64,000 nt of DNA from an uncultured Gammaproteobacteria bacterium (GTDB lineage: Bacteria; Patescibacteriota; Microgenomatia; UBA12405), in contig CAZJUH010000001.1 of NCBI GenBank assembly GCA_964549165.1, positions 863 through 64,862 on the forward strand. Direction: 5' to 3'. Below are positions 7,693 through 45,711 of the stretch, piece after piece. Below the pieces are notes generated by a model. It worked only from the letters and a program-made list of their open reading frames with translations. It was not told the origin of the DNA and made no database searches. How positions within the stretch are numbered: position 1 is the stretch's first letter; the number at the start of each line of letters is the position of its first letter. A program made the translations under genes and the position numbers.

Positions 7693-7717
7693 ATTTTATA
7701 GTTTAATTTATAATTAT

Positions 7718-17381: not shown

Positions 17382-17474
17382 ATTTGCGAAGATATATATT
17401 TTTAGGAGCGGAAGATCTGAGCTTAATAGCGAAGGGTTGAGCACCGCAAAAATATATATCGAGCAATTTAAAAT

Positions 17475-19554: not shown

Positions 19555-22479
19555 TTATTTTCCCATCTCTACCCCCATTTTAATATCCTTCTCCAATTTT
19601 TGATTAAAAAGCAGTTTCCCTCCTACGACGCTCGCCACCGGCTCCACCGCGTTTATTTGCCAATTATTAGGTATAGAAATCAAACTCACCATGTTTGTTT
19701 CTCCGTAGCCACTCTGCTTTTGCACATAATTTAGATAAGAAAAGGTTGTTGTTTTACCCAAATCAATCACAGCGCTATATTTAACTTCAACTTCAATTTT
19801 CTTCCCAATGGGTACCATTACCAAAAAACCCACCTCCTTTTTGCTTCCATTCTGGCTAATTTTTAAATTTTCTCCACTAACTATGTTTTTTCCACTATTG
19901 CCACTCTCACTCCAATTTACTTCCTCCACCCGACTTTCTGCTGGTATGTAGACTCTTAGATAATTCTTATAATCACCCGCCGGCCAGTTGGTACTTTTGG
20001 AAGTGTTTTCGTAAACTATTTTCAGCTTATTTTTGATTGTCTTCTCTCCTATTTCTACCTCTCTTTCAATGTTTCGATACAAAAAATAATTTGCCTTATT
20101 TACCCCCATATTTGCCTCAACAAGATACAAATAATCGGCAAAACAACTAACTTGCTCTGAGCTTGTCGAAGAGCATTTTCCTTCATAAATTGACCCGTCC
20201 CACCCCGCCTCCGCCACTACCCTCGCCGCATTACTTTCATTAAAGCTTATTTGCACCTCGTTTCGATCTAAAAGTTCCACAATTGTCATCAGTAGCTTTT
20301 GCCCCACATTGCCTTCGGCCATTTTTATTTCTTCCATTAATTGTCTACTGACCCCGCCCAGAAAGCTCGCTTTTTGTCCCGAACCAGCAAAAAATTTATT
20401 ATCTGAATAAAACTCAGCCTGTTCATATAAGTTATTTTCGCTTACTTTTTCTTTAAAATCGGGCACAAATATTTCTCCCGTTACGCCGAGTACCGCCTTA
20501 ACCGACGCCAAATTTAAACCAATGACCCCATCCACCTTTCTTCCTGTTTCCTTGTCAAGAAACCACTGGACATCTCTAGAAACAAGGGGAAAACTAGCTT
20601 GCCAATTGGCGTCTCTCATATACCAGCCAGCCTCCCCGAGGTATTTTTTAATTTCTTCGGGTGGTTCCACGTGCCCCCTCAGTTGTCCGTCTGCTTCATA
20701 AATATCGCTAATTTGGAAATTTAAAAACCGTCCACTCTCAAAAGCCAAAATCGCAAAAGAACCAATAAAACCACCCGAGGGTCTAATTTCGTTTTCGTTT
20801 TGTAAAAGCACCATATATTCTCTTCTTTTACCGTCAAGACCAATCATTTCCGGTAGTATTTGGAGTATTTCGTTCATTTTTTCCACTGTTTTTCTTTGAG
20901 TTTCCAGTTTTATCTTTATTTTATTAAGATCTGTTCTAAATCGACTTGGCAGCCAGTCCCATTGTCCCGACAATCTACCTTGCAAAATTCCCATTTTTGA
21001 AATAATCGTTTCCGTTCTTTTTGCCATCTCCGAAAGCTCATTTTCCATTTCAACTTCCCCTTCACCAAAAAGGCCTTTACTAATTTTCTCTCCACTTTTC
21101 ACAAGAGCCAGATTTAACTTTAGCAGATCTATTACTTCGCTCTCAATTCGTAAAAGACTTCCTATTTTTCCAACCTCAAAAATTGCCAAATTCTTTTCGT
21201 TGTTTGTTGCCAGAACTTCTATTTTCTTTTCCGCCTCACTATAATTATTTTCTTCAATGAGACTCTGAATTCTCAAGATATTTTTTGGAATCGTCGCTAA
21301 TTTTACAATATTTACCAGTAGTACGACAAAAATCATCAATAAAACTCCAGCTACCACCCACCCCCACCATTTATTATTCTTTATTGTTTTTTCTTTAGTT
21401 TTTTGATTTTCTTCCTTTTTTACCAGGCGGGTGTCAACTTCGGTTGACATAATAGCCTGGCTTTCCTTTTCCTCCATCTTTCTCTCCGGTATCGGACTCG
21501 TTATAAAATTTTCAAATACAATTTCTTTTTCTTCCTTCGCCTCGCCAAAGTCTTCGGCGAAGGCGGGTTTCTCTTCTTCTTCAATCTCTATCTCAATTTC
21601 TTCTTGTGTTTCCTCTTTAGGTTTTTCCGCCAAAGGCGGATCAGCCTCTGGCTGAAGATTTTTTTCTTCTATTTTTCCCTCTTCCTCCTCTATCTCCACC
21701 TCAAACCTTCTCTCTCTCTTTTCTTCTTCTATTTTTGGCCTAAAATCGCTATTTTTTACAACCGCTTTTTTTCTATTATCCGTATCCACCTTCGCTACAA
21801 AATACTGCACCGCCTCTTTTGCCCCTTGTTTAAAAGGTATTTCAGCCTGCCATCTCAACGCTTGCTGGCTTTCTTTAACCATTTTTTCTTTTTCGGAAGA
21901 CTCTTCATTTTTTGACGAAGCTTGAATTACTTTAGTTCTTGTCATCTTTGCCTCATCAATTAGCACCTCCGCCACTATTTTCGAATTCGTTTCTTTCCCC
22001 CCAATATAAAATATTTTTCCTATTGTTCCAGAGAAAAAACAAGATCTGAGTATTGCCTCAACAAAATCATCAACCATCAGAACCCGATAAAACTCCCCAA
22101 GGCTTGGTAAAACCAAGTTTTTGTTTTTGGCCGCCGTTAAAAAAGCCTGCCCCAAAAAGCCCTCTTCCCCCATTCCCTCCCCATACACATTTTCCCCCAC
22201 TACTATCCTCCAGTTCAATTTAGTTTCGATCAGTTTATTTTTCCACTCCTCAGCCCTATCTTCATTATCAGCTACTAAGACCAATTTTTGATTATTTTCT
22301 AGTCTCATCCACCCACTTTCTCTTCCCTCAAAATCAAAAATATAGGCTGCTTTTTTAGGTATTTCTTCAATATCTCCATCAATTATTTTTATTCCCTGTT
22401 CTTTGAGTTTAGAAACGAGTTTTACCGCTACGTAGTTATCTGTCCCAAAAATAATTGCCACCGAGGTTAAGACTTCCAT
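19555..22479 (-). CDS. Membrane protein: N-terminal cytoplasmic Rossmann-like domain, acidic low-complexity linker, one TM helix, large extracytoplasmic DUF4012-like domain
   Basis: 974 aa. Glu/Lys-rich linker containing the repeat-element-encoded peptides LQPEADPPLAEKPKEE and ESQAIMSTEVDTRLVKKE. TM helix WWGWVVAGVLLMIFVVLLVNIV. Adjacent to Wzx-like and O-antigen-ligase-like genes. Confidence 0.5.
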   Translation of the reverse strand: MEVLTSVAIIFGTDNYVAVKLVSKLKEQGIKIIDGDIEEIPKKAAYIFDFEGRESGWMRLENNQKLVLVADNEDRAEEWKNKLIETKLNWRIVVGENVYGEGMGEEGFLGQAFLTAAKNKNLVLPSLGEFYRVLMVDDFVEAILRSCFFSGTIGKIFYIGGKETNSKIVAEVLIDEAKMTRTKVIQASSKNEESSEKEKMVKESQQALRWQAEIPFKQGAKEAVQYFVAKVDTDNRKKAVVKNSDFRPKIEEEKRERRFEVEIEEEEGKIEEKNLQPEADPPLAEKPKEETQEEIEIEIEEEEKPAFAEDFGEAKEEKEIVFENFITSPIPERKMEEKESQAIMSTEVDTRLVKKEENQKTKEKTIKNNKWWGWVVAGVLLMIFVVLLVNIVKLATIPKNILRIQSLIEENNYSEAEKKIEVLATNNEKNLAIFEVGKIGSLLRIESEVIDLLKLNLALVKSGEKISKGLFGEGEVEMENELSEMAKRTETIISKMGILQGRLSGQWDWLPSRFRTDLNKIKIKLETQRKTVEKMNEILQILPEMIGLDGKRREYMVLLQNENEIRPSGGFIGSFAILAFESGRFLNFQISDIYEADGQLRGHVEPPEEIKKYLGEAGWYMRDANWQASFPLVSRDVQWFLDKETGRKVDGVIGLNLASVKAVLGVTGEIFVPDFKEKVSENNLYEQAEFYSDNKFFAGSGQKASFLGGVSRQLMEEIKMAEGNVGQKLLMTIVELLDRNEVQISFNESNAARVVAEAGWDGSIYEGKCSSTSSEQVSCFADYLYLVEANMGVNKANYFLYRNIEREVEIGEKTIKNKLKIVYENTSKSTNWPAGDYKNYLRVYIPAESRVEEVNWSESGNSGKNIVSGENLKISQNGSKKEVGFLVMVPIGKKIEVEVKYSAVIDLGKTTTFSYLNYVQKQSGYGETNMVSLISIPNNWQINAVEPVASVVGGKLLFNQKLEKDIKMGVEMGK
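21625..21660. repeat. Double-hairpin element encoding PEADPPLAE (copy in the DUF4012-like gene)
   Basis: TTCCGCCAAAGGCGGATCAGCCTCTGGCTGAAGATT has hairpins CCGCCaaaGGCGG and CAGCCtctGGCTG. Other copies: 25297-25333 (intergenic), 35284-35319 (virB4), 59493-59544 (trmH-like); a half copy lies at 7755-7776. Confidence 0.85.
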
Positions 22480-23853: not shown

Positions 23854-25263
23854 TTAAATGAGCCCTAGTATTATCACCAAAAGCCAAGTGTTTTGGGGGA
23901 GTGTTAGCCAGTAATGATCAAAAAATCCCGTTATCCCTACAATCACCCAGATCCACCAAAATCTATTTTTTGATAATTTTATAATTGTAGATTGTAGATT
24001 GTAGATTATTATTGCTATCCCTAGTATCCCTATTTCACTCCAGGCGAGCAATAGAATATTGTGCACCGGCTGCATCCAGTAAAAATTACCCACTTTATAT
24101 TTCGGTAAATTAACCACAAAATTCCCGGCTCCCACTCCAAAAAGTGGATTTCTTTTTATCATTTTTATCGCCGATACCGCCAGCACTTCTCTTTTTTCAA
24201 TACTATTTGTATCCCAGCCGCCTACAAAATCGCTAATTCGATAATTAACGCTAATTACCCCCAAAATTATCAAAACAACCCCTATTCCTAACAGCAATCT
24301 TCCTATCAACAACCTGTACGGAACATCTAATGGTTTGTACGGAACATCTAATGGTTTGTACGGAACAGTCGCGACTGTTCCCTTCATTTTGATTTTTTTA
24401 TCTTTTAGGATTTCTTCAACTATCAGCATCCCTACCGTCAACACCCATACCACCCTACTTCCCGACAGGACAATTCCCATCATCGCACTCCAGTTTACTA
24501 TCCAGTAAAATATTCTATTAAAATACCCCTGTCCGCCATAACTGCGAAGCTGTTGGCGGAACCACCACCACGCCAGCAGTAAAAATCCGGCCAGGGAGTT
24601 TGGGTGGGAAAAAGTCCCGTAAACTCTTATCCACGCCTGATCAAAAACCCTGAATTGAGCTATCCCAATTCCCCCATAAGTGAATCTTCTCTCTCCAAGC
24701 CACCACCAAATTCCATTTAAGCTTCCACCTTTTACAACCTGGGCCAAACCCAAAAAAGCCTCTATTATAATCCACCAAGGGACTATCTTCATTAAATAGT
24801 TAATAATTTCATTTTTATTTTTACCAAGCAGTTTAATCGTCAACCCCCACTGACCAATCCGAAACCATCTGTAAAGTGCCACCCATTTCGCCGTCGCCAA
24901 AATTATATTTATTCCCACAAACATGGTCAGTATTAAGTTTTTGAAATTTAAAATATTTTGGATTTTTAATTTTTTATTCTTAATTGAATACTGTAGATTG
25001 AAGATTGAAGATTGTCGATTGAAGATTGATGATTTATTTATTACCCACAAAAGCCACATCAAATCCGTTAAGTAAAAAATTATTGACAAATAGTCAATTC
25101 TGATTCCTACCACACTACTTTCTTCCAGCCAAAAATGTCTCCCCAGTTGTGTTGGAATCAACAATAACCAAATTAACAGAAAGATATTTTCGATTTTAGT
25201 CTTTTTTTTCTTTTTATTGAAAATTGAAGATTGTCGATTGAAGATTTGTTTAATTCTCTCCAC
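23854..25263 (-). CDS. O-antigen ligase / polymerase-family (Wzy_C) membrane protein
   Basis: 469 aa, polytopic. Contains a family-typical exported loop with the motif FGVGAGNF. Also contains an in-frame 21-bp tandem repeat and heptad-repeat insertions. The true start may lie downstream of 25263. Confidence 0.55.
   Translation of the reverse strand: MERIKQIFNRQSSIFNKKKKKTKIENIFLLIWLLLIPTQLGRHFWLEESSVVGIRIDYLSIIFYLTDLMWLLWVINKSSIFNRQSSIFNLQYSIKNKKLKIQNILNFKNLILTMFVGINIILATAKWVALYRWFRIGQWGLTIKLLGKNKNEIINYLMKIVPWWIIIEAFLGLAQVVKGGSLNGIWWWLGERRFTYGGIGIAQFRVFDQAWIRVYGTFSHPNSLAGFLLLAWWWFRQQLRSYGGQGYFNRIFYWIVNWSAMMGIVLSGSRVVWVLTVGMLIVEEILKDKKIKMKGTVATVPYKPLDVPYKPLDVPYRLLIGRLLLGIGVVLIILGVISVNYRISDFVGGWDTNSIEKREVLAVSAIKMIKRNPLFGVGAGNFVVNLPKYKVGNFYWMQPVHNILLLAWSEIGILGIAIIIYNLQSTIIKLSKNRFWWIWVIVGITGFFDHYWLTLPQNTWLLVIILGLI
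24316..24382. repeat. In-frame 21-bp tandem repeat (2.3 copies) ending in a perfect 20-bp palindrome
   Basis: (GTACGGAACATCTAATGGTTT)x2 then GTACGGAACAGTCGCGACTGTTCC. GGAACAGTCGCGACTGTTCC is a perfect palindrome. The repeat encodes VPYKPLD repeats in the O-antigen-ligase-like protein. Confidence 0.8.
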
Positions 25264-25345
25264 GCCCTATCCTAACACATTTTGTTCTCTTTGGGCTTTT
25301 CCGCCAAAGGCGGATCAGCCTCTGGCTGAAGATTTTAGACTTTTT

Positions 25346-25855: not shown

Positions 25856-26651
25856 TTTTAGTCATTAACATCTGCTGTCCCACCATTACCGCACTGTTCA
25901 CAAACCAGTAAAGCAGTATCCCAATTGAAAAATTAAAACCGATAAAAATTGTCATCAGTGGCATCATATAAGTTGACTGAGTTCTCATCGCCGCCATCAT
26001 CTCGTCTTCCTTACCCGGAGTTGCTTTTGTATATGCCGTATCGTCAACTGCAGGTAAACCTTTCCGAAGCTCCTTCGGAGCGGAGGAGGGCATCATTTTT
26101 TTAGCGCTCCAAAACTGAAGTAAGCCCGATCCTAGCAGTAAAAACAAAGGCAAAACTAAACTATAGTTTAGTCCACTCCCTATAGCCTTGGCAGGAGTCG
26201 TCGACAAATTGGTTCCGAGAAAGGTATCTTTAAACTTAAAGTTTTCACTGGTTTTAAAATTTTGAATTAGTTGCTGATTCACTGTTTCTCTGGTAATTTT
26301 TCCCTCAGCAAAGCCAGACACCATATTAAAAGCTGAAAAGAAAATCATTAGTACTGCAATTTGCAAAATATTTGGTAGACACCCAGACAGGGGATTAACT
26401 CCTTCTTGTTTATAAAATTCCATTTGAGCTTTAGCCAGACCCTCTTTGTCTTTTCCATATTTTTCTTGTAATTTTTTCAGTTTTGGCTGTAGCTCCTGCA
26501 TTTTTTTAGCAGACTTCAAGCTCGGCAACACCAGGGGTATTAAAATTAGTCTAATAATTACTGTTACCGCAATAATCGACCATCCTAGGTTCCCAAATAA
26601 ATAATAAAAACCAAAAAGAGCGTTAACAAAAGGCGCGGTAAATATGTTCAT
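25842..26651 (-). CDS. yidC: Membrane protein insertase YidC (short, Gram-positive-type)
   Basis: 269 aa. Polytopic, with the conserved YidC/Oxa1 core and C-terminal basic tail. Part of the rpmH-rnpA-yidD-yidC operon. Confidence 0.8.
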   Translation of the reverse strand: MNIFTAPFVNALFGFYYLFGNLGWSIIAVTVIIRLILIPLVLPSLKSAKKMQELQPKLKKLQEKYGKDKEGLAKAQMEFYKQEGVNPLSGCLPNILQIAVLMIFFSAFNMVSGFAEGKITRETVNQQLIQNFKTSENFKFKDTFLGTNLSTTPAKAIGSGLNYSLVLPLFLLLGSGLLQFWSAKKMMPSSAPKELRKGLPAVDDTAYTKATPGKEDEMMAAMRTQSTYMMPLMTIFIGFNFSIGILLYWFVNSAVMVGQQMLMTKIDRK

Positions 26652-29177: not shown

Positions 29178-30296
29178 ATGAAGCTTTCCCTTTTACAAGA
29201 AAACATCTCTCTCGCTCTCAACCATACTTCTCGTTTTGTCGCTTCCAAAATTCAACTTCCTATCTTAAACCATATTCTTTTTTCCACCGACAAAGGTCGT
29301 CTAAAATTATCTGCCACCAATTTAGAGCTTGGTATTAATTACTGGCTCGGAGCCAAGATTGAGGATGAGGGTTCTTTTTGCCTTCCCGCCAAAGAAATCA
29401 CGGAATTTGTTTCTTATTTACCTACTGGTCGTCTTGATCTTTTCTTAAAAAACAACAATATTCTGACTCTATCTTCAAATAAAACCGAATCAAACTTTGC
29501 CTGTCTACCTCCGGCTGATTTTCCCGAAATTCCCTCTCTTGATCCCAAAACTGCCTTTGAAATTGATTTACCAATATTGACTGAGGCGATTAATCAAATC
29601 GCTTTTGCTGCTGCTTCCGATGATTCCCGTCCTATTTTGACCGCCATTCTTTGTACTTTTTCTTCAAGTGAACTTAGTTTAGTGGCCACCGATGGCTTTA
29701 GATTATCTTTAAAAAATATAAAATTAACGAGTCCTCTCGATCTTTCAACTGGGACCAAAACTCTTTTAATTCCCGCCAAAAGTTTGCTTGAAATCGTCAA
29801 ACTGGCTAAAAATGCTAAAAAAATCAAAATAGGACTCACAAAAGATTCCAATCAGGTAGTTTTCGTCTTAGAGGATTTGGAGCTTGTTTCCCGGCTTATC
29901 GAGGGTGATTATCCTGACTATCATCGAATTATCCCAAAGGAAGCAATAACTAAAATTTATCTAAATCGCGACGAACTCGTTCAGGCCATCAAGCAAAGCT
30001 CTGTTTTTGCTCGTCAATCTGCCAATGTTGTTAAATTAAGTCTTAAAGCCTCTTCAATTGAGCTTTCTGCCAATGCTCCTCAAATTGGTCAAAATAAAGT
30101 TAGTGTTGATGCCCGTATCGAAGGAGAATCCCTAGAAATTGCCTTTAACTACAAATTTATCTCTGATTTTTTGACTATTTGTCAAGGCGAGGAAATTATT
30201 ATTGAGTTAAACGAAGCTCTTTCTCCTGGTCTTTTCCGTGATCAGTCTGACCCCGCCCTCACTCATATTATTATGCCTGTTAGGATTCAAGATTAG
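29178..30296 (+). CDS. dnaN: DNA polymerase III beta sliding clamp
   Basis: 372 aa with the three-domain clamp architecture, directly after dnaA. Confidence 0.9.
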   Translation: MKLSLLQENISLALNHTSRFVASKIQLPILNHILFSTDKGRLKLSATNLELGINYWLGAKIEDEGSFCLPAKEITEFVSYLPTGRLDLFLKNNNILTLSSNKTESNFACLPPADFPEIPSLDPKTAFEIDLPILTEAINQIAFAAASDDSRPILTAILCTFSSSELSLVATDGFRLSLKNIKLTSPLDLSTGTKTLLIPAKSLLEIVKLAKNAKKIKIGLTKDSNQVVFVLEDLELVSRLIEGDYPDYHRIIPKEAITKIYLNRDELVQAIKQSSVFARQSANVVKLSLKASSIELSANAPQIGQNKVSVDARIEGESLEIAFNYKFISDFLTICQGEEIIIELNEALSPGLFRDQSDPALTHIIMPVRIQD

Positions 30297-30398
30297 CCAT
30301 ATTATTATGTTTACCAAGCCGAAGCTTTAGCGCAGGCTGGCCTGTTAGGATTCAAGATTAGTTTTTTTAGGTTTTAGAATTTAGATTTTTTCTGTTTT

Positions 30399-31694: not shown

Positions 31695-34600
31695 CTATCG
31701 ACATAGGCTATTGAATTCGTCCTGACTAATTCCAAAATAAGGACCTGCAATATCCCAGTCTATGTTTGCTCCTACCACTTCATAATGTAAATGATTTCCG
31801 CTTGAATACCCAGTATTGTCAACGATTCCAATTTGCTGACCGGCTTGTACTACTTCTCCGTCACCAACTCTGTATCCTCCAGCCGGCATGTGGGCATAGC
31901 GGATAAAAAAATCGTCCCCACCATAACTACTGTGAATGTCGATATAAAATCCATATCCATTTCCTTCACCAAGTCTGGCAATACCAGAAAAAGTTGAGAA
32001 AATTGGTGTGCCAAAATCTGCTCCCCAGTCCATTGCCCAAATTCCATTATGAGAATAAGAACCAAAAGGACACTGTGTTCTGGTGCCGGCAACGGGCGCC
32101 CCGCCGGGATTCATTGTTGATGGTCCACCACCTCCACTTGTACTACAAAGATAGGTTTGACCATCGTCTCCTATAATTTCCTTTGTTGGTCCGGTCAGTG
32201 AAAAAGGCGCCCCTGCCTGTTCACAGTTTTGCCCACCCTTTTCCACATAAATATCCTTTGGTAGGGGTACACCCGCAATCCACGTCCAGGTTTCTTTCAT
32301 TCCGTCATTGGGATTATTCAAATATTTTCTTCCAGTATTTCCGCTTTGTGTCTGTCCGGCGTCTGGATCACATTGTCCCGTTAAAAAATTAGTGGCCCAG
32401 GCCAGCCAGTAATCGCCTCCAATTTTTGGTTCATTAATACACGCTGACGCCGGATCCAGTCTTAAAAACACTTTAATTTGAGCATCAAAATTATTTTCAA
32501 TTGAACTATCGTTAATTCCAAAATCCTGAACCTTTCCATTATCATAATTACTTCCGGCGGTCTCATGCATCCAAACCCAAAGAGCGTACAGAGGATTAAT
32601 TCCGGCACAAAGAGACCTGTTGACTACGTCGTTATAACATTCCTCAACATGACTTTTACCAGCCTGCCAATCTTTTACAACCCTAAAATAATTACTCTTA
32701 CTTATTAAACCCGGCACCTCATTTTCTGGCGCATTCATATCACAGTTAATCTCTCCTTCCGGTAATCCTCCCGGACCACTTCCTCTTTTTAGAATACAAC
32801 CGCTCAAATCTTTTGGAGGAACAATCGATGATACCTGTTGGTGCATTAGCATGTTATACAAAAAACTTCCCGCAAAAAAAACAATAAATATTGGTAATAA
32901 AAAAGATCCAAAATTAACTAATCCCAGCAGTGCTGGTATTCCAACTAAAAAAGTTCCAATATCAAAAACAAACTGAGCCACCCCCCCAACAAACTTTCCC
33001 AGTCCCAAATCTTCGGCAACAAATTTTTTGATTTTGTTTAGACTCGTTCCTAAAATTTTTTCTAAAAATTTTTTAGCCGCATCTATTATAGGTTTAGCTA
33101 CTACTATTACCAAAGCCACAACGGCAATTATTTGTCCCACCACCGGTAGGGCTTGAAAAGCAGCTACTACTCCAGCGAGTGCTCCTCCACTTGCTGCGCC
33201 CCCAGCTGCCGTTACCGCACCTTTACCCGAGATAGATTTTAGAATTAATCCCACCCCTTTTACTGTTCCCTCTTTGGCAATTACTGCGGCTGAGTTTTTA
33301 ACAAAAGCTGCTGTTGCTTGACCTCCGATTTTTTCGATTATTTTTAAACCAGCTTTTTGGACTCCTATTTTTGACAATACATTTCCCGGAAAAACACTTA
33401 TCTTTTGCCAAACACCAACCATTTTTTGAGTTCCGTTCATTAATTTCAACATTTCCGGACTATTTTTAAAAATAGTTGCCATTTTTTCCGTCACTCTAAT
33501 TTCTTTTAATTTTGGCAATTTATCACTCCCTATCTTTTCTCGCAGTCTGTTGTATTTTTGAATTAGATTATTAAACTTTTTCGGTGCCATTACCACGTTA
33601 CTAGCCATAAATCTGGCCTCATCTATCGATCTTTCTATTTCTCCGTCACTTTTATTTTGGTTTTCGTTTTTAACAAAATTATATGTATCGCTCCTATTTT
33701 CCTCAGCCATGGCACTAGCTGGATCATTTATAAAGGCATTAACCACCGTGACATATTCTTTAATTAATTTTTCATTTTTTACTCCACTTTTCCTTAACTC
33801 TTCGCCTATTTCCTTTCCAAGTTCCAGTCTTCGGTAGTTTACAATTGCTTTTATATTTTCGTTTTTATAATTATCGGTTGCTTTTTCTGCTTCGGCAACT
33901 ATTACCCGGGCCTCTTTCATGTTAGACAGATCTTCGGGTACCCGAAGACGATCTCCTTCTTTCCAGGCGATTAATATTTCGTTTTTAATTTTTTCTTTAA
34001 TTTCATTATTAATTGGCAACTTTTCTTCAACCAGTTTTTCGTAGGTAGCTTTAGCAACTTCTTCGGCCCTTTCTTTTACTTTAATTTCTGCTCTAATCTC
34101 TTCAACTTTTTGAATTAAATCATCAACCTTTTCCGAATCTTTAATTCTTTTTTTTAGTTCTTTTTTTAATTCTTTTGTTTTATAATCTTGATCATTTTTA
34201 AGACTATTCTCTTCGAAAATTTCAAACAATCTTTCTTTCTCCTTTTGTTCATCCGAGGTTAAAACTTCAACGATTTTCTCTTTTTTAATTTCTTCCACCT
34301 TGTCAATTCGTGTCCGTCCATCTTCTTCAGCCAGTCTATTCATTGCCAGGTCTTCAACTATCTTTGTTTTGGTTTTAAAATTGAGCCTATTGAGTTTATT
34401 GGCATTTCTTAAAGCAATTTCCTTTTGAACCTCAATAAATCGCTTAACATCTTTTTGACCCGTTCTTTGATAAATTTCTTTTTCTATTTTTTCTCTTTCG
34501 TTATTACTTTTAGCTTTTTCATAATCTTCAAGTAGTTCTTTCAAATCCTGCTTGTTCAAAGATTTTGTTTCTAGTTTTTTTTCTCCAATTTCTAGCTCTT

Positions 34601-34811
34601 CTATTTTTAGTTCTTTTATTTCTGGCGGCAAATCCCTTAGGGTTTTAATTGTTTTTTTTAGATTTCCCGGATCAAAGTTACTTAATATCTTAAGTTTTTC
34701 AAAGACACCTCGACAAGACCAAAACAGGTCATGTTCATCGTTTAATTTTTTTTTGCCAAGCCCTTCAAGTGACACAATTAATTCCGTAATATTATTGGGC
34801 GATTGACTCAT
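31695..34811 (-). CDS. T4SS-associated giant cell-wall hydrolase: coiled-coil N-region, TM segment cluster, C-terminal M23/LytM peptidase domain
   Basis: 1038 aa. Long K/E-rich coiled-coil region, a Gly/Ala-rich hydrophobic block (about 3 TM helices), and a Cys-containing central domain. The C-terminus carries M23 signatures (HMPAGGYRVGDGEVVQAGQQIG...GYSSGNHLHYEV). The architecture resembles PrgK/TcpG-type conjugation hydrolases. Confidence 0.7.
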   Translation of the reverse strand: MSQSPNNITELIVSLEGLGKKKLNDEHDLFWSCRGVFEKLKILSNFDPGNLKKTIKTLRDLPPEIKELKIEELEIGEKKLETKSLNKQDLKELLEDYEKAKSNNEREKIEKEIYQRTGQKDVKRFIEVQKEIALRNANKLNRLNFKTKTKIVEDLAMNRLAEEDGRTRIDKVEEIKKEKIVEVLTSDEQKEKERLFEIFEENSLKNDQDYKTKELKKELKKRIKDSEKVDDLIQKVEEIRAEIKVKERAEEVAKATYEKLVEEKLPINNEIKEKIKNEILIAWKEGDRLRVPEDLSNMKEARVIVAEAEKATDNYKNENIKAIVNYRRLELGKEIGEELRKSGVKNEKLIKEYVTVVNAFINDPASAMAEENRSDTYNFVKNENQNKSDGEIERSIDEARFMASNVVMAPKKFNNLIQKYNRLREKIGSDKLPKLKEIRVTEKMATIFKNSPEMLKLMNGTQKMVGVWQKISVFPGNVLSKIGVQKAGLKIIEKIGGQATAAFVKNSAAVIAKEGTVKGVGLILKSISGKGAVTAAGGAASGGALAGVVAAFQALPVVGQIIAVVALVIVVAKPIIDAAKKFLEKILGTSLNKIKKFVAEDLGLGKFVGGVAQFVFDIGTFLVGIPALLGLVNFGSFLLPIFIVFFAGSFLYNMLMHQQVSSIVPPKDLSGCILKRGSGPGGLPEGEINCDMNAPENEVPGLISKSNYFRVVKDWQAGKSHVEECYNDVVNRSLCAGINPLYALWVWMHETAGSNYDNGKVQDFGINDSSIENNFDAQIKVFLRLDPASACINEPKIGGDYWLAWATNFLTGQCDPDAGQTQSGNTGRKYLNNPNDGMKETWTWIAGVPLPKDIYVEKGGQNCEQAGAPFSLTGPTKEIIGDDGQTYLCSTSGGGGPSTMNPGGAPVAGTRTQCPFGSYSHNGIWAMDWGADFGTPIFSTFSGIARLGEGNGYGFYIDIHSSYGGDDFFIRYAHMPAGGYRVGDGEVVQAGQQIGIVDNTGYSSGNHLHYEVVGANIDWDIAGPYFGISQDEFNSLCR

Positions 34812-34825
34812 TCAAAAATTATACC

Positions 34826-37288
34826 TTAAGTCGCATCATCGTTTCCAAATAGCTTGTCGTATGTCATCTTTGCCTCATCTTTTTTTGCTTCTGCTGTCTT
34901 TATTTCTTCTTTGGGCTTTAGGCTTTCTTCTATTTTTGTCGTAAATTCTGCCTTTGTTTTTTTGGCGAGCTGTGGTGGTTGTGGAATCACTGGCTCTTTT
35001 TGTTGGTTAATAAACAGGGGTTTTGTCGGTGCTTCGAATTTTGGCAGGGGCGGAAGTGGGGGCGTCGATTTAAATAATTCTTGATATTTGGGTAAAGATC
35101 CACCGGTATTTTTATCCTCTTCGCTATTGTTTTTTTCACTACTTACCTCCTTAAGCTCTTCTTCTGTTTTCTTATTTTCTTCTTCTTCCATTTGGGTGAC
35201 TCTTTTTAGAAGCGCCTCTTCCGGTGATTCCTCCACCTCAGACTTAAAGAGCAATGTTGGCTTCTGTTCCTCCTCTTTAGGCTTTTCCACCAAAGGCGGA
35301 TCAGCCTCTGGCTGAAGATTTTCTTCCGGCTTTACCTCAATTAAAACTTCTTTTACTGGTTCTGTCACCACCGTTTTCTCTTCCTCTTTTTCTTCTTTTT
35401 TTACCAGGCTGGTATCGACGTCAGTCGATATAATAGCCTGGCTTTCTTTCTTCACCAGTGCTGCCTGTTTTTCGGCAATTTTTTGCCGAAGTATCTCTTC
35501 TGGATTTGAAGTAATTAATTTATGTTCTTCTTCTGAGGCGATTACCTGAATTGCCACGTGATTTTGTCCGGCAAAAAATATTCCCTCTCCTTTATCTGCT
35601 GACAAGAGCAGTTGTTTTTCCCCTTCAGATAGGTAAAACGTTTCTCCAATTAGGTCGATAGCGGCACTGTGTTGTTTGAGCAGTATTTGAATTGAGCTGT
35701 TTGTCACTATTTCTTTTCCATAAGGAGTGTTTAAAAAGTCGTCAACATCTTGGGTGATTGTTGTTACTCCGAGATAATATTTTCGACCTCTTTTAATAAT
35801 TCCCCTGAGAAATGCCGCCGAATCATCATATTGCATCAAATACCAAGCCTCATCCACCACCAAAATTCTCTTTTTAAGTTCTTTTTTCACAATTGTCCAA
35901 ATGTAGTCAAGTATTATGTGCATTGCCACTGGTCGTAAACTTTCTTCAAGGTTGCGAATTCCAAAAACCACAAAGCTATTATTTAAGTTTACGGTTGTTT
36001 TTTGATTAAAAATTCCCGCAAAGGAACCCTTAATATATTTTTCCAGTCTTGCCGCCAGGCTTTTCGCCTTTTCTTCTTCGGCTCCAATCAGGGCTTTGTA
36101 TAAGTCTTCAATTAGAGGCGCTTCTCGGGTCTGGGTCTCGGGATCTGGTGATATTCCCTTGGCCTTATAGGCCTCCATAATAGACCTATCTAAAATTGAT
36201 TCCTCGATAGGATCCATGGCCCCGAGCATTATTTTAAACATTTTATGTAAGGTTAGGATTTTGTCATTTAAGGCGTTTTCCCCCTCTTCTGTTACCAGCG
36301 ACAAATCAAAAGGATTGATTTTTGAAGCTTCTCCATAGCCAAAGGCAATATATTGGCCTCCCACCGATTCGGCTAGACTCTTATATTCATTCTCTGGGTC
36401 AATAACAATAATGTCGGTTCCGAGCATTAGTGACCTCATTGCTTCGAGTTTGATCATATATGATTTACCGGCACCGGCCGAGGCAAAAACCACCGAGTTG
36501 TAGTTTAGCATCGAAAATCTATCAAAAATTACGAGAGATCCGTTATGTTCATTGATTCCAAACATAATTCCCTTATCATCTGATAGGTCCGACGATACAA
36601 AAGGAAAAGTACTGGCGAGGGAGGTTGTATCCATATTTCTGGTAATGTTTAGTCTATCGGAACATATCGGTAAAGTCGTTATAAAACCCTCCTCCATTTG
36701 TAGACTGGCTTTTTTGGAAATAATCATCAGCGCTCCTAGTCCCGATTCCAAGTTTTTGGTTGAAGTATCAAGTTCTTCTTTGGTTTTTGCCGACAAGGTC
36801 AGATATAGGCCAAACTGGAAAAATCTTTCTTCTCCCTTGACAAGGTCTGCTTGCAAGGTCAGGGCATCTTCAAGTTTTGCCTGAGTTGCGGGGTTTACTA
36901 TTTTACCTCTTTGGATATCGGTACTTAGCTCTGCCTCCATTTCGGCAATTTTTCGCCTTAGATCATCAAGAATTTCTTTCCCGTCGGTTGGATAAATAAA
37001 CATCGAAATTTTTAATGACGCATCAAAATTAATTAATGTTGATAACCAATTAAGTCCCACAAATCTTGGATATCCAGCCACAAAACAGGTTCGGTAATAT
37101 TTGTTATCAATTCTGATGTGGTTAAAATCAACTTCAATTGCCGAGGGGGCAATAATGTCTTTAATTGATACCAGTCCCTCCACAAATTGCTTCGCCTCGC
37201 CAACAGTGGGCTTTGCCTCAATCGTAGGGCTGGAAACCGACTTGTCGGTTTTAATAGCCCTATTTTTTATTAAATCTAATATTTTCAT
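34826..37288 (-). CDS. VirB4/TrbE-family type IV secretion ATPase with an added Pro/Glu/Lys-rich C-terminal tail
   Basis: 820 aa. Walker A VVFASAGAGKSYMIKLE, Walker B region RILVVDEAWYLM, and conserved ...GRKYYLGVTTITQDVDDF. The C-terminal ~230 aa is low-complexity and contains the repeat-encoded ESQAIISTDVDTSLVKKE and NLQPEADPPLVEKPKEE. Confidence 0.75.
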   Translation of the reverse strand: MKILDLIKNRAIKTDKSVSSPTIEAKPTVGEAKQFVEGLVSIKDIIAPSAIEVDFNHIRIDNKYYRTCFVAGYPRFVGLNWLSTLINFDASLKISMFIYPTDGKEILDDLRRKIAEMEAELSTDIQRGKIVNPATQAKLEDALTLQADLVKGEERFFQFGLYLTLSAKTKEELDTSTKNLESGLGALMIISKKASLQMEEGFITTLPICSDRLNITRNMDTTSLASTFPFVSSDLSDDKGIMFGINEHNGSLVIFDRFSMLNYNSVVFASAGAGKSYMIKLEAMRSLMLGTDIIVIDPENEYKSLAESVGGQYIAFGYGEASKINPFDLSLVTEEGENALNDKILTLHKMFKIMLGAMDPIEESILDRSIMEAYKAKGISPDPETQTREAPLIEDLYKALIGAEEEKAKSLAARLEKYIKGSFAGIFNQKTTVNLNNSFVVFGIRNLEESLRPVAMHIILDYIWTIVKKELKKRILVVDEAWYLMQYDDSAAFLRGIIKRGRKYYLGVTTITQDVDDFLNTPYGKEIVTNSSIQILLKQHSAAIDLIGETFYLSEGEKQLLLSADKGEGIFFAGQNHVAIQVIASEEEHKLITSNPEEILRQKIAEKQAALVKKESQAIISTDVDTSLVKKEEKEEEKTVVTEPVKEVLIEVKPEENLQPEADPPLVEKPKEEEQKPTLLFKSEVEESPEEALLKRVTQMEEEENKKTEEELKEVSSEKNNSEEDKNTGGSLPKYQELFKSTPPLPPLPKFEAPTKPLFINQQKEPVIPQPPQLAKKTKAEFTTKIEESLKPKEEIKTAEAKKDEAKMTYDKLFGNDDAT
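35402..35442. repeat. 40-bp nested palindromic element encoding SQAIISTDVDTSLV (copy in virB4)
   Basis: ACCAGGCTGGTATCGACGTCAGTCGATATAATAGCCTGGCT: outer arms CCAGGCT/AGCCTGG, inner ATCGAC/GTCGAT. Other copies: 21422-21462, 38429-38467, 38471-38510, 38522-38561. Confidence 0.85.
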
Positions 37289-37338
37289 TTTATTTTTTAA
37301 TTTATTTAGGTTTTAGACTTTAGATTTTAGTCTTTTTT

Positions 37339-38040
37339 TTACTGTTTCCTCGTTACCGCTGCGGCGGTGTAATCAATGTTTTGTAATCTTTGGTTGTTAG
37401 CGAGATCTTCATTGTAAGTTCTGTAAAATAAATCAATTAATTCTTTGGTATTTAAGGCTTTAATTTCCAGTCCCAGTCTCGAAAAAAGTCTGACGATATG
37501 ATCTTCTTTTGGTTTAAGGGCCGCCTTAGCCTTTTCTAAAATATATTCTTTTGAGTATGGCAGTTCTGCCTTCTTTTTAATTGGATTTAACACCGCAAAA
37601 GCTTGTTTTTGGGCATTTTTTATTCCGAGTTCAAGGCTGGAAAAAGGAACCACCACATAAAAGGTTTTCGACAAAACATCATTTCTTTTTACCGTTTCTT
37701 CCACGAACTTTTTGTATGAAGTAATCCTGTCCTTTAATTTTTGATTTACTTGTTTATTTTTTGCCTCTTCCAAATTGTTTAAGTAATTTCCTACGTCTTT
37801 GGTGGTTGAATTAATGACAATTTGAATCGTAAAATTTAACGAATTTAAAATCCCTCCATAGGCAAAGACTAGAGCTCCCTGTTCTCTTTCTGATAATAAA
37901 TCAAAATTTACTGAGGAGACCTGAAGTACCATTGAGGCTGAGCCGTCTTTTAGAAGCACTATTCCATCAACGATATCTTCAATTGGCAAATTGTCTTGAG
38001 TGCTTCCTTTTATGGCATTTTTTAGAGGATCATTTGACAT
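37339..38040 (-). CDS. Hypothetical soluble protein immediately upstream of virB4
   Basis: 233 aa with no TM helix. Co-oriented with virB4 and separated from it by a 50-nt spacer containing a heptad repeat array. Confidence 0.45.
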   Translation of the reverse strand: MSNDPLKNAIKGSTQDNLPIEDIVDGIVLLKDGSASMVLQVSSVNFDLLSEREQGALVFAYGGILNSLNFTIQIVINSTTKDVGNYLNNLEEAKNKQVNQKLKDRITSYKKFVEETVKRNDVLSKTFYVVVPFSSLELGIKNAQKQAFAVLNPIKKKAELPYSKEYILEKAKAALKPKEDHIVRLFSRLGLEIKALNTKELIDLFYRTYNEDLANNQRLQNIDYTAAAVTRKQ

Positions 38041-38067
38041 GCTATTTAATAATAACCTATTTGTCTA

Positions 38068-38982
38068 TTATTTGGCGAGAATTTTTATTGGTTCAATAAT
38101 TTTTCCGGTTAGGTTTATTTCTACCCGGTCAAATTCTAAATTTTCTTTTTCTGTCACTACCAAATATTTCCCATTACTAAGTTGAGTCAAAGTTTTAAAC
38201 TGTCCCAGCTTGTTTGTTTTCAGCACTCGGCTCGGATTGCCATCTTTATCTTGAATTTCAATAATCGCCCCCTCTACTATTTTGTGATTTAGATCGAGAA
38301 CCATTCCTACTACCAGATTGGGCAAATCAGGAATATCTGGCATGGGAATTTCTCCAAATACCACTGTTCCCGTTGCCCCCAGTTTTTCTGTTTTTAATCC
38401 CAAATTAGCCGCCTTCGCCTCTTCCTTTGCCAGGCTGGTATCGACGTCAATCGGTTTTGTACCCTGGTTTACCAGGCTGGTGTCAACTCCTGTTGACATA
38501 ATAGCCTGGCTTTCTTCTTTTACCAGGCCGGTATCGACGTCAGTCGATTTAATAGCCTGGCTCTCTCTCCCGATTGACGGTAAAGAGTTTATAAACTCTT
38601 TGACTTTTTTGTCCTCTTTAATTGGCACCACCATCTCTTCTTCCTCGTCACTTTTTAATTGTTTGCTCAAATCAATTTCCAGCCAGTTTTCCGGACTTTC
38701 TTTTTTATAAGTAAAAATTGTCGGTGAATAAATTGATTTAATAAAAGCCATCAGCCAGGTTTCTAGTGGTCGATCTTGAAAGGGGACAAAGGCGAGGGCG
38801 AGACCTCCAGCCGCAAAGATAAAAATTAACGGCCATTTAATAAAAAAAACGAGCTTACTTGAATTAATTAACAGGGCAATAATCACTCCCCCGGCTGCTT
38901 TCCCAAATTGTTTTAGGGTCATATCTCCCACGAGTTTAAATTCGTAGGAGGTTATTTGTTGTGGAATCGGGTGTTGTTCCAT
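38068..38982 (-). CDS. Membrane protein with N-terminal TM hairpin (VirB3-like topology), three tandem repeat-element-encoded peptide copies, C-terminal beta-sandwich-like domain
   Basis: 304 aa. Two TM helices near the N-terminus. Three copies of ...SQAI(K/M)ST(D/G)VDT(G/S)LV... are each encoded by a 40-bp palindromic element (38429-38561). Confidence 0.45.
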   Translation of the reverse strand: MEQHPIPQQITSYEFKLVGDMTLKQFGKAAGGVIIALLINSSKLVFFIKWPLIFIFAAGGLALAFVPFQDRPLETWLMAFIKSIYSPTIFTYKKESPENWLEIDLSKQLKSDEEEEMVVPIKEDKKVKEFINSLPSIGRESQAIKSTDVDTGLVKEESQAIMSTGVDTSLVNQGTKPIDVDTSLAKEEAKAANLGLKTEKLGATGTVVFGEIPMPDIPDLPNLVVGMVLDLNHKIVEGAIIEIQDKDGNPSRVLKTNKLGQFKTLTQLSNGKYLVVTEKENLEFDRVEINLTGKIIEPIKILAK

Positions 38983-45463: not shown

Positions 45464-45711
45464 ATTTATAATTCGATGCTAAATAATAAGGCTGGTTTAC
45501 CCGTCCGAAGCTCAATAGCGAAGGAGGGTCCTGAACCAATGATAATCGTATCGTAAATATTTTTATTTTCGTCCATGTTCCTATTTTACAGTAAAAGTCA
45601 AATATGTTTAAAAACTTATTTCTTCTCTTTAGTTTTTATAATTTAGAATTTTTTGTTTTTTTTATTAGTTACTCATTGATAATTGAAGATTGTCAATTGA
45701 TAATTGAATAG

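Follow-up and report, generated by a model that had tools for sequence, protein, structure and literature searches.

Hairpin repeats linked to duplicated gene ends at dnaN and trxB in a Shapirobacteria genome

Introduction

What kind of event places a second copy of a gene end next to an essential gene, with a short insert between the copies, and leaves the gene in working order? The question is raised by two loci, dnaN and trxB, in a 64-kb window (the whole stretch of DNA that was analysed) from a member of the Shapirobacteria. They belong to the CPR bacteria (candidate phyla radiation, Patescibacteria), whose genomes are generally regarded as streamlined and as containing little mobile DNA. 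A first-pass annotation of the window tentatively interpreted the arrangement as a site-specific integration scar, with the duplicated gene ends being target duplications that flank an element. Here, both loci are described, the inserts are assigned to a family of hairpin repeats, and occupied sites are compared with empty ones in relatives.

Results

The intact dnaN gene (DNA polymerase III beta clamp; 29178-30296, plus strand) is an ORF of 372 aa with 84-90% identity to Shapirobacteria DnaN and with the Pfam domains PF00712, PF02767 and PF02768. The downstream repetition of its 3' end, already noticed in the first-pass annotation, is real, and the exact repeat of GCCTGTTAGGATTCAAGATTAG measures 22 nt (30275-30296 and 30340-30361). 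Overlooked at that stage was CATATTATTATG, which precedes the first GCCTGTTAGGATTCAAGATTAG copy (30264-30275) and is found again at 30298-30309 with 12/12 positions identical. Because CATATTATTATG also recurs, the second copy is a 33-nt gene end split by a 31-nt core (30310-30340). Read along the plus strand, the locus thus consists of the live terminus (30264-30296), defined by the sequence repeats as A' (CATATTATTATG) and B (CCTGTTAGGATTCAAGATTAG, TAG stop included); a junction base C followed by the second A' (30297-30309), both read directly from the sequence; the hairpin core TTTACCAAGCCGAAGCTTTAGCGCAGGCTGG, which interrupts the dead copy at ATG^CCT (30310-30340; covariance-model match 30311-30343, 38.3 bits, E = 3.7e-9); and the dead second copy of the last seven dnaN codons (B, 30341-30361), an exact repeat that is missing from 11 related dnaN loci and is followed by the original T-rich downstream sequence. 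The last G of the core is common to core and repeat, and the predicted fold agrees with the family structure described below. In the live copy, dnaN retains its own last seven codons and stop. Stop-codon readthrough into the second copy was dropped as a candidate, since that copy is out of frame.

At trxB (thioredoxin reductase), encoded on the minus strand, it is the 5' end that is duplicated. The live gene, starting MEQIYDTIIIGSGPAG, occupies 44501-45463; its ORF has homologues, and the exact protein is present in an independent assembly. The 5' end GGTCCTGAACCAATGATAATCGTATCGTA occurs in two exact copies of 29 nt, a match that can be extended to 37 nt at 92% identity; the repeat had been reported before with its first coordinate off by one base (45423-45451, not 45424). 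Copy R1 (45423-45451, minus strand) lies within the live gene (codons YDTIIIGSGP) and copy R2 (45527-45555, minus strand) is part of the dead original N-terminus. Between them, sequence comparison delimits a spacer (45452-45490, minus strand) with the new start codon (45461-45463), a uORF stop TAA (45466-45468) and an AT-rich, promoter-like stretch similar to the native upstream region. The spacer is followed by GCTGG (45491-45495, minus strand), the reverse complement of CCAGC and a short duplicate (A') of the Pro-Ala codons after the insertion point, as seen from occupied versus empty sites GG(A/G)CCAGCGGG, and by the hairpin core TTTACCCGTCCGAAGCTCAATAGCGAAGGAG (45496-45526, plus strand, antisense to trxB), which is identified by its fold and a covariance-model match (45497-45531, 38.9 bits, E = 2.4e-9) and overlaps the following repeat by GG.

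The dead alternative N-terminus of trxB that had been postulated does exist and heads a leftover ORF of 36 codons (MDENKNIYDTIIIGSGPSFAIELRTGKPALLFSIEL; 45466-45576, minus strand). It runs from the original trxB start (ATG 45574-45576) through the hairpin to a TAA stop 2 nt ahead of the live ATG (45463-45461; MEQ...), and was called as a 36-aa gene in the independent assembly L001. In a representative protein library it retrieved only itself and spurious repeat proteins, and a concatenated leftover-ORF query against large protein collections returned nothing. Judging from this layout, the live trxB start is likely reached through reinitiation after the 36-codon ORF at the original promoter and ATG. 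Programmed translational bypass as in T4 gene 60 or mitochondrial byps was rejected: in the old trxB ORF, 19 codons of the insert precede the stop, bypass is unnecessary at trxB because the new ATG is conserved, and at dnaN the second copy lies beyond the stop codon.

AT-rich sequence favours short repeats, and chance similarity or an assembly artefact might be invoked for both loci. Such an explanation is practically negligible in view of exact repeats of 22 and 29 nt, covariance-model E-values as low as 1e-11 and a homologous architecture in six other metagenomic lineages. The trxB site reads identically in assembly L001 (Logan SRR13007705), which excludes an assembly artefact there.

The two loci share their architecture. 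Both repeat pairs bracket an insert with the same 31-nt core, TTTACC-N3-CC-GNA-GC-loop-GC-GNA-GG, which represents a 3'-truncated family copy situated inside the redundant terminal segment, at a distance of 5-12 nt from the point where the duplicates meet; where hairpin and dead copy adjoin, 1-3 nt are shared (G, GG, GGG). The copy joined to the gene body is intact and therefore the essential gene still works. Direct repeats of at least 18 nt within 400 nt of each other are limited to a handful in the 64-kb window. The DNA between the repeats amounts to 44-75 nt and is not a random remnant, because the same short stretch recurs in six lineages. Neither an ORF nor a tRNA or Rfam family was found in or near the inserts: Rfam searches, run at gathering thresholds on the whole window and as permissive E-value scans of both sites, yielded nothing meaningful, with Rfam holding no DNA repeats of such a kind, and a tRNA and tmRNA search for integration targets retrieved none. 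These data do not support an integration scar: nothing is coded between the repeats, their content is conserved, and the core belongs to a mostly intragenic palindrome family. The two loci make most sense as gene termini duplicated in tandem, each with a hairpin in the dead copy, which describes the repeats better than target duplications flanking an element.

The family consists of GC-rich imperfect palindromes of ~35 nt with the full form TTT[AG]CC-N3-CC-GNA-GC-loop-GC-GNA-GG-N3-GG[CT]AAA. The earlier suggestion that the two inserts are related members of a repeated family was borne out by their common core and by further copies found with the covariance model. In the window it gave 10 matches (E = 1e-11 to 1.5e-4), 10/10 on the plus strand, and in 57 related loci (707 kb) another 28, with the strand uniform within each locus. 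All copies (38/38) lie on the locally C-rich, GNA-bearing strand, at least three of them sense and in-frame in genes; 27 of the 38 fall within long ORFs and dimers were not seen. In the consensus structure 97.9% of the cells are paired, a value reached by none of 500 shuffles. Covariation is found at pair 9-33 (UA 13, GC 9, AU 1, GU 1) and pair 5-36 (CG 13, UA 6), a signal that is in part inflated by copies picked with a filter requiring outer pairing. GNAG is conserved twice within the stem, giving a symmetric GNA/GNA internal loop, and a conserved terminal tag is missing. The uniform strand bias suggests that the hairpins arise or spread via a replication-coupled, single-strand process.

Besides dnaN and trxB, plus-strand copies in the window are located in a minus-strand gene at 4338-5342 (5073-5107, 46.6 bits, E = 1.1e-11), twice in ftsH (17475-19505, minus strand), namely at 19134-19167 (34.7 bits) and in the N-terminal region, where the copy codes for 13 aa (19422-19458, 33.9 bits), and as an in-frame insertion (KPAFAEDFGEAK) in a DUF4012-like gene (21537-21570, 23.2 bits; missing from L004, L005 and L007). 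A weaker copy has sense orientation in the plus-strand gene 55681-56184 (55698-55732, 25.2 bits). The motif copies noted before at both ends of the trmH-like gene correspond to strong plus-strand matches: one at 59294-59327 (40 bits) is a ~9-aa in-frame insertion near the C-terminus and is missing from L094, L096, L097, L104 and L107, and one at 59844-59877 (40.3 bits) lies at the N-terminus, which is variable among relatives. In-frame insertions of 7-10 aa in the trmH-like C-terminus and the DUF4012-like gene thus have orthologues that do without them, and most family copies are in-frame within genes and have no long flanking repeats. A family-like sequence in the yidC linker (26056-26093, plus strand, 32.1 bits) was rejected as an insertion, the linker having the same length in L002, L005 and L007. 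For the convergent spacer at 17405-17450, where a motif copy within a 13-bp inverted repeat had been described, the inverted repeat was confirmed and the motif copy was not, being degenerate and not recovered by the covariance model at E<=10. The 13-bp arms enclose this degenerate relative of the core in a long hairpin between convergent genes (17391-17461, no strand assigned; -27.7 kcal/mol, z = -5.4), which its predicted fold marks as probably a bidirectional terminator. The window has at least three families of small GC-rich palindromic repeats. In relatives, the hairpin family is also present in type-IV-secretion-like genes.

The comparison with relatives, which had been proposed as a means to define empty sites, revealed clean ones at both genes. 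The dnaN site is empty in 11 loci (L002-L008, L027, L033, L034, L037), and the nearest dnaN relatives of the window (85-90% identity) are empty. It is occupied in L021 at the same ATG^CC position as in the window, with a dead copy that is ~29% diverged and has features of its own clade (CTC, TAA). The trxB site is empty in L009, L012-L017 and L133-L135; it is occupied at the same nucleotide in L011 and L132 and, in a reduced form, in L129, L130, L131 and L136. The repeats of L011 are identical over 38 nt, and L133 and L134, both empty, differ from L011 by only ~1% in the flanking 500 nt. L132 has diverged repeats whose old and new copies differ chiefly at synonymous sites, a pattern that import of one copy from another lineage would fit better than local duplication and decay. 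Identity profiles for a mosaic or imported trxB tract in L132, the window and L011 were uninformative, all lineages being ~75-80% identical. In the reduced form the old N-terminal trxB codons are gone and the hairpin, spacer and ATGGAACAA are kept; the spacer is retained in L011, L132, L129, L131 and L136. The repeat pairs are hence found identical (window, L011), diverged (L132, L021) and half-deleted (L129, L130, L131, L136). The old trxB N-terminus of the window (MDENKN) agrees with its nearest empty relative L135, and the MEQ-type N-terminus is scattered across the TrxB tree. P0161 (MFDT start) was rejected as an occupied allele, since it is an empty site with an alternative start call. 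With some lineages occupied at exactly the same nucleotide and others cleanly empty, the arrangement is a gain/loss polymorphism that rebuilds the gene end, and not an ancestral simple tandem duplication.

Could this polymorphism go back to a single old event in each gene, in an early ancestor of the Shapirobacteria, followed by vertical inheritance and, in most lineages, by loss through precise deletion between the repeats, with gene conversion having homogenised those repeats that are identical today? All trxB alleles share junctions and a homologous spacer, cassette subtypes roughly track host clades (a CAG subtype shared by the window and L011; the reduced form shared by L129, L130, L131 and L136), and loss via repeat-mediated deletion would be easy. 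However, the two halves of the window's dead dnaN copy (12 + 21 nt, with the hairpin between them) are 100% identical to the live copy while its nearest relatives are empty, and conversion across the hairpin would erase the hairpin. Moreover, the dead copy in L021 has substitutions typical of its own clade and not of the window's clade, so that both dnaN duplications arose from the local sequence and postdate the split of the clades, and the old trxB copy of L011 has a lineage-specific Phe codon, as in its empty relatives. We consider an ancient origin unlikely.

Insertion at the same nucleotide into independent lineages, with repeats made from local sequence (dnaN in the window and L021; trxB in the window and L011), is also what active site-specific homing or integration would produce. 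The hairpin and a target in dnaN or trxB would be recognised by an enzyme encoded in trans, be it a tyrosine or serine recombinase, an HUH single-strand transposase, a Cas1-like integrase or a reverse transcriptase. Its staggered cut would let in a small cassette and give rise to the duplications of 21-38 nt. The conserved cassette content (hairpin, spacer, ATGGAACA) between lineage-specific repeats fits this idea, as do the absolute strand bias of the family, reminiscent of replication-coupled single-strand transposition, and the conserved non-Watson-Crick G.A positions in the hairpin, which suggest specific recognition of one strand. On the other hand, repeat lengths vary (21-22, 29, 38 nt), the other intragenic copies lack long flanking repeats, and the dnaN insert includes a 12-nt copy from the other side of the insertion point that a simple staggered cut would not yield. 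Apart from the palindrome itself, terminal inverted repeats are missing from both inserts (44 and 75 nt), a TTAC-type site as used by IS608-like elements is missing from the dnaN target, and no integrase or transposase was recognisable by eye among the 60 ORFs of the window. Homing or integration is a possible but doubtful source of the alleles.

A selected regulatory module was weighed as well. Here, the hairpin and leftover ORF would tune trxB translation (uORF, reinitiation), the dnaN hairpin would act as RNA stabiliser or terminator, and the duplications would be by-products. Window and L011 have leftover ORFs of the same length (36 codons) with equal stop-restart spacing (TAAATATG), hairpin and spacer are kept even after deletion of the old codons, and the structures persist in small genomes. 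Yet most relatives manage without the arrangement, and in the reduced form a 12-codon ORF ends more than 20 nt ahead of the start, so tight stop-start coupling is not conserved. The favoured GNA strand is antisense to trxB, and no T-run directly adjoins the dnaN hairpin on its 3' side. A regulatory origin appears quite improbable.

We favour a reading, to which we give a probability of roughly one half, that treats the dnaN and trxB loci of these Shapirobacteria as alleles of a 'hairpin plus terminal duplication' type. Their gain and loss would proceed at the repeats, through recombination or template switching, with no element-encoded enzyme involved. The structure can be written L-A'-B-j-A'-H-B-R, where H is the hairpin core, A' and B are the gene sequences flanking the insertion point, j is the junction base or bases, and L and R are the flanks. 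It would result if an empty gene and a segment H-B-j-A' underwent a single crossover, or ends-in recombination with gap repair, in B; multi-step replication template switching at the hairpin could lead to the same structure. This explanation takes a first A'-H-B beside an intact A'-B as given. Conversely, the insert would be removed precisely if the two B copies recombined or slipped against each other, which would account for the patchy distribution of occupied sites. Precise loss would leave ...ATTATG joined to a single CCTGTTAGG...TAG-TTTTTTT at dnaN, and the old start joined directly to GGACCAGCGGG at trxB; alleles would fossilise once the repeats had diverged or the old copy had been deleted.

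Several observations fit this favoured reading less comfortably, among them the chiefly synonymous differences between the L132 copies. That the arrangement recurs at exactly one nucleotide in each of the two genes might reflect a trans-acting enzyme with sequence specificity, and the fact that a streamlined genome keeps 65-113 nt of DNA with no apparent use, despite deletion-prone identical repeats, may indicate a function or drive outside the favoured explanation. A more speculative and rather unlikely reading is an undescribed CPR mini mobile element, a non-coding hairpin cassette of 45-75 nt that would enter the terminal codons of essential genes and leave a working gene end plus a dead copy of 20-40 nt. 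It would be moved by a new replication-tied, trans-acting single-strand enzyme or be enzyme-free; in the latter case, a junction-spanning DNA fragment would serve as substrate for ends-in recombination in naturally transformable cells.

Discussion

The hairpin family decorates essential genes (ftsH, trmH-like, dnaN, trxB) under an absolute strand rule, and the dnaN and trxB alleles illustrate how an essential gene can put up with an insertion at a coding end, namely by having a second copy of it. The allele states, from empty through fresh and diverged to fossilised, form a natural series in which birth, spread and decay of insertions are testable in metagenomes. Such alleles also mislead annotation, as they create small ORFs that are spurious and displace the start codon (MEQ... 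versus M.ENNQ...). A description of the hairpin family, or of hairpin-linked gene-end duplication in CPR bacteria, was not found in a literature search.

Several known systems were rejected as identities. The inserts are not MITEs, having no terminal inverted repeats and flanking repeats of 22, 29 and 38 nt instead of a fixed 2-10 bp. An XerCD dif-like site was dropped as well: TTATGTTTAC looks like an XerD arm, though only at dnaN and with no accompanying XerC arm, and trxB has no such sequence. An IS608-type TTAC target was dismissed because TTTACC belongs to the insert and is missing from the empty sites, and an integron attC or core site and a template/variable repeat pair of a diversity-generating retroelement were set aside after inspection of the sequence.

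For CRISPR- or casposon-type (Cas1) integration the signs are mixed: the 21-38-nt duplications recall repeat duplication, but the inserted DNA is a conserved cassette, not a spacer, and no cas genes were seen in the ORF list of the window.

Closer parallels exist among hairpin repeats. REPs (repetitive extragenic palindromes), which are associated with RAYT (Y1 HUH) transposases, are palindromic repeats of 20-40 nt with an unpaired GTAG or CGTC tag at one stem end, and some are in-frame in genes, notably those of replication and repair (PMC3733652). Like them, the window family is made of short GC-rich repeats with a conserved imperfect stem (~35 positions, 10 matches in 64 kb and 28 in 707 kb); dozens of hairpin copies per genome are likely, and single-strand mobilisation in trans is plausible. 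In contrast to REPs, it has no end tag and carries GNAG twice in a symmetric internal loop, is mostly intragenic, forms no head-to-head dimers and keeps to one chromosome strand. As to a RAYT, inspection of the ORFs listed for the 64-kb window turned up none that resembled a transposase. To our knowledge, REPs have not been reported with duplicated gene termini.

Rickettsia palindromic elements (RPEs) are palindromic, sit in-frame in tolerant loops and termini of protein-coding genes of a small AT-rich genome, and are patchy among relatives (PMC3733652). The window family is likewise in-frame in genes and absent from orthologues. Its unit of ~35 nt differs from RPE-1, which spans ~100-150 bp, and RPEs belong to a different phylum; we know of no RPE case with a 20-40-nt duplication that rebuilds a gene end. 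The GC42 clusters of yeast mitochondria and the double-hairpin elements of Allomyces, both from AT-rich genomes, are also short, GC-rich hairpins, with stems constrained by structure, loops that vary and a presence/absence polymorphism (PMC4478555). All these traits recur in the window family, whereas the mobile GC clusters are organellar and mostly intergenic, and neither the strand rule nor gene-terminus duplication is described for them.

Rebuilding of a gene end is familiar from integrative elements at att sites in tRNA or protein genes, where the gene body continues into an intact copy and the dead copy is displaced to the far side of the insert, and free-standing homing-endonuclease genes of fungal mitochondria can carry a replacement gene C-terminus. 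Such elements are kilobases long and have their own integrase or endonuclease. The direct repeats at dnaN and trxB also include the gene terminus and rebuild the gene, but they bracket only 44-75 nt, which hold a hairpin repeat and some gene-like sequence and no integrase gene, cargo or recognisable decayed remnant. Campbell-type (ends-in) integration offers an analogy of mechanism, not of family: L-A'-B-j-A'-H-B-R has the exact topology of a single crossover in B, and the reverse restores the empty gene. It differs in that the integrating segment is only 65-113 nt, for which we know of no vector-like molecule. The arrangement has the look of a small element that comes and goes while leaving essential genes intact, and it is probably a REP/RPE-like hairpin repeat coupled to gene-end duplication by a mechanism that we infer, rather than a classical integration scar.

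Gene-end duplications at dnaN and trxB

At the 3' end of dnaN, the 22-nt sequence GCCTGTTAGGATTCAAGATTAG (30275-30296) recurs exactly at 30340-30361, and the 12 nt ahead of the first repeat, CATATTATTATG (30264-30275), are present again at 30298-30309. The locus therefore holds the whole 33-nt gene end twice: an intact terminus (HIIMPVRIQD*), then C, then the same 33 nt split at ATG^CCT by a 31-nt core, TTTACCAAGCCGAAGCTTTAGCGCAGGCTGG. It is a tandem duplication with a hairpin in the distal, spare (dead) copy, not an element flanked by target duplications. Duplication and core are both absent from 11 related dnaN loci (L002-L008, L027, L033, L034 and L037). The architecture recurs at the identical ATG^CC position in L021, a distant relative with 64% identity in the DnaN C-terminus; there the stop codon is followed by ATTC, CTTGATTATG, the core TTTACTATTCCGAAGCTTTAGCGAAGGATAG and CCAATTTGACTCCAAAACTAA. 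The L021 dead copy differs at 6/21 plus 3/10 positions from the live copy joined to the gene body and carries codons (CTC, TAA) of its own clade, unlike those of the window's clade; the two duplications were therefore made separately from local sequence in different lineages, one long ago and one recently. A single ancient event per gene followed by gene conversion is disfavoured and doubtful, since the dead copies are lineage-specific and the window's split copy is identical to its live copy.

At trxB, 29 nt of the 5' end, GGTCCTGAACCAATGATAATCGTATCGTA (45423-45451), are found again at 45527-45555, the match extending to 37 nt at 92%, and the insert core, TTTACCCGTCCGAAGCTCAATAGCGAAGGAGG, is of the same type as that at dnaN; an independent Logan assembly (L001, SRR13007705) is identical to the window at this site. 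In gene orientation, the original promoter and ATG (45576-45574) lead into the codons MDENKNIYDTIIIGSGP and then the core in reverse complement. Next come CCAGC, which repeats 5 nt of the codons that follow, and a spacer, AT-rich and resembling the native -10/start region; after it stand TAA, AT, a new ATG GAA CAG ATA, the duplicated YDTIIIGSGP codons and the remainder of the gene. The old start heads a 36-codon ORF whose stop lies 2 nt ahead of the live start, which suggests that the latter may be used by termination-reinitiation. When each locus is read along its core, the topology is common to both: the gene body with the live copy comes first, followed by a junction, a 5-12-nt stretch of gene sequence (A'), the core and the dead copy.

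Most relatives carry an empty trxB, starting M.ENNQIYDT...GSGPAG, and the window shares its old N-terminus, MDENKN, with L135, the closest of its empty relatives. L011 has the full architecture, its two 38-nt repeats being identical and made of sequence specific to its lineage. Divergence between L011 and the empty loci L133 and L134 is ~5% overall but falls to ~1% over the 500 nt surrounding the site. L132 has the architecture with repeats differing at 6/32 positions, mostly synonymous. Four reduced loci (L129, L130, L131 and L136) have lost the old codons (ATG joined to TCCTCCTTCGC...) and kept the hairpin, spacer and ATGGAACAA. The MEQIYDT-type start, a marker of the cassette (hairpin, spacer and new start), is scattered in the tree among empty types (120 TrxB homologue clusters). 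A purely regulatory role of the structure is most improbable given its absence from most relatives. Separately, L011 (1715-1822) and L134, genomes otherwise 95-99% identical, differ at ~50 positions in a ~110-nt trxB patch, 210-320 nt into the gene in a region hypervariable among all lineages; a loop replacement or a further small insertion might account for this.

The first-pass annotation had described duplicated dnaN and trxB ends with related inserts, and the exact repeats, the common core and the identical L001 assembly at trxB bear this out, its coordinates being off by one base. Empty sites, which it proposed to look for in related genomes, exist at the 11 dnaN loci and in most trxB relatives. 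Its interpretation as a classical site-specific integration scar is unlikely because nothing is encoded between the repeats and their short content is conserved.

A hairpin repeat family bound to one chromosome strand

The family hairpin, defined by regex scans, a 24-copy alignment and RNAalifold, is built, from the outside in, of a 4-8-bp stem that often contains a one-base bulge, CC/GG, a symmetric GNA/GNA internal loop, GC/GC, and a loop of 4-6 nt that may sit on an apical extension. No variation occurs in the GC/GC pairs or in the G and A of either GNA triplet. Positions around them covary (column pair 9-33: UA 13, GC 9, AU 1, GU 1; 5-36: CG 13, UA 6) and 97.9% of cells are paired, a value reached in 0/500 shuffles, some copies having been picked by a filter requiring outer pairing. 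At full length the repeat is a perfect palindrome, as in TTTGCCCACCGAAGCTTTAGCGAAGGTGGGCAAA (L026; z = -5.5). The dnaN and trxB cores have the 5' TTTACC arm, lack its 3' GGTAAA partner and end at the dead gene copy, with 1-3 G residues common to both.

A covariance model finds 10 copies in the window, all 10 on the + strand. Related loci totalling 707 kb yield 28 more, and within any one locus they share a strand; the locally C-rich strand carries 38/38. Of the motif copies in the first-pass annotation, that at 17405-17450 is weak. Hairpins are antisense to a long ORF in 22/38 cases; since sense in-frame copies exist (at least three: L026 fpg, L013 5'-3' exonuclease and window 55698), the bias tracks the chromosome strand rather than the way in which genes are transcribed. 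In-frame insertions without counterpart in orthologues occur at the trmH-like C-terminus and in the DUF4012-like gene; the yidC copy was rejected as an insertion by comparison with relatives. Long flanking repeats were found at none of these three.

Strand bias, reuse of the same exact site and conservation of the hairpin's non-canonical positions would suit a trans-acting site-specific enzyme (HUH single-strand transposase, recombinase, Cas1-like integrase or reverse transcriptase), but none was recognised by eye among the window's 60 ORFs, repeat lengths differ, and a simple staggered cut would not leave the additional 12-nt copy seen at dnaN; we consider such an enzyme unlikely.

Host genome and neighbouring repeats

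The window (36% GC) is a Candidatus Shapirobacteria-like genome segment (candidate phyla radiation, CPR), its DnaN being 84-90% identical to Shapirobacteria proteins. Long ORFs lie on the minus strand in 35/60 cases; no tRNA and, at gathering score, no Rfam family occurs in the window. GC skew is negative throughout (1-64000), with no sign change at the rpmH-rnpA-yidC / dnaA-dnaN junction (~27.2-27.5 kb); therefore either the replication origin lies elsewhere or gene orientation dominates the skew. A type-IV-secretion or competence-like cluster (31695-38982; VirB4/TraG-like ATPase, TraC-like, PrgI-like, M23 peptidase) adjoins dnaN and is conserved in the syntenic L002-L008 and L131-L133. Large genes of this cluster contain hairpins in L131 (three matches, 17545, 18555 and 18711, and a fourth pattern match at 17831-17849), L005 and L007 (one each).

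A third, unrelated GC-rich repeat of ~45 nt (...TTTTCCGCCAAAGGCGGATCAGCCTCTGGCTGAAGATTTT) is strand-biased too: + at 21610-21660, 25285-25335, 35270-35320 and 59478-59526, and partial on the minus strand at 47060-47070 and 7755-7764. The trmH-like gene carries it as an in-frame insertion, PPEADPPLADKLQ, missing from orthologues. Another hairpin family, TCTCCCTTGTCAAAGGGAGAAGC-stem-GAGAGGGATTG, occurs at 4045-4095, 5378-5393 (-) and 50655-50682, in L002 (6755-6805), and upstream of trxB in L012 and L131; it lies directly 3' of the dnaN stop in L002, L003 and L004, the spot of the window's duplication, and replaces the main hairpin at the trmH-like C-terminal hot spot in L090, L091 and L093. Arrays of the heptamer ATTG[AT]AG (ATTGAAGATTGTAGATTG...), all on the + strand (7709-7753, 23984-23997, 24983-25041, 25216-25246, 54927-54940, 59527-59545), often adjoin GC-rich repeats. 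The minus-strand gene 23854-25263 contains an exact 21-nt tandem duplication, TGTACGGAACATCTAATGGTT x2 (24315-24356), seven codons in frame without a hairpin. The PrgI-like gene (38068-38982) has three diverged ~45-nt repeats (38420-38560), each with an internal palindrome; they carry TTT[AG]CCAGGC[TC]GG, resembling the main hairpin's 5' arm and flank.

A proposed recombination model for the occupied alleles

On sequence comparison, chance and simple vertical decay of one duplication are excluded, since the trxB cassette is homologous in all occupied lineages while its repeats can be local and identical. With H the hairpin core, A' and B the gene sequence either side of the insertion point, j the junction base(s) and L and R the flanks, the occupied topology L-A'-B-j-A'-H-B-R is the exact expected product of a single crossover, as would arise if an empty gene recombined within B with a segment H-B-j-A'. 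An ends-in event with gap repair within B would give the same product, and the empty gene would return if the two B copies recombined or slipped against each other. As H-B-j-A' is present in every occupied allele, spread by transfer and recombination is possible: transfer between related cells with RecA-type recombination in the most conserved stretch (the GSGPAG-coding region at trxB, the MPVRIQD-coding region at dnaN) would leave both repeats recipient-like. The insert may then be locked in once the repeats diverge (L132, L021) or the old copy disappears (L129, L130, L131, L136). Multi-step template switching at a stalled fork could also yield this product; microhomologies at the junctions, a hairpin cut short and an A' tract of only 5-12 nt would all fit it.

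Comparison with known systems

The hairpin with duplication at dnaN and trxB is real and reproducible, and comparison with relatives supports it. We put the probability that the cassette is a mini-element of a new kind, or reflects a new mechanism of insertion, at roughly one in five. For CPR bacteria, our literature search returned no description of this family or of gene ends duplicated together with a hairpin. Islands targeting tRNA genes rebuild the gene end, and fungal mitochondrial endonuclease genes bring a replacement C-terminus. The rebuilt gene end is alike here, but the dnaN and trxB inserts contain no gene. An integrative element is also at odds with the lack of an integrase, by eye, among the window's 60 ORFs, and a MITE with the lack of terminal inverted repeats with a short fixed duplication. 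As in REP elements (PMC3733652), a short palindrome occurs in many copies, with in-frame intragenic units, some in replication/repair genes; unlike REPs, the family lacks a GTAG or CGTC tag and does not lie predominantly outside genes, and no RAYT was noticed in the window's ORF list. Rickettsia palindromic elements likewise are short palindromes in many copies with in-frame intragenic units, and the mobile GC-rich hairpins of AT-rich mitochondria (PMC4478555) behave similarly. As small palindromic repeats go, the family has an unusual, testable gene-end-duplication signature and follows an absolute strand rule.
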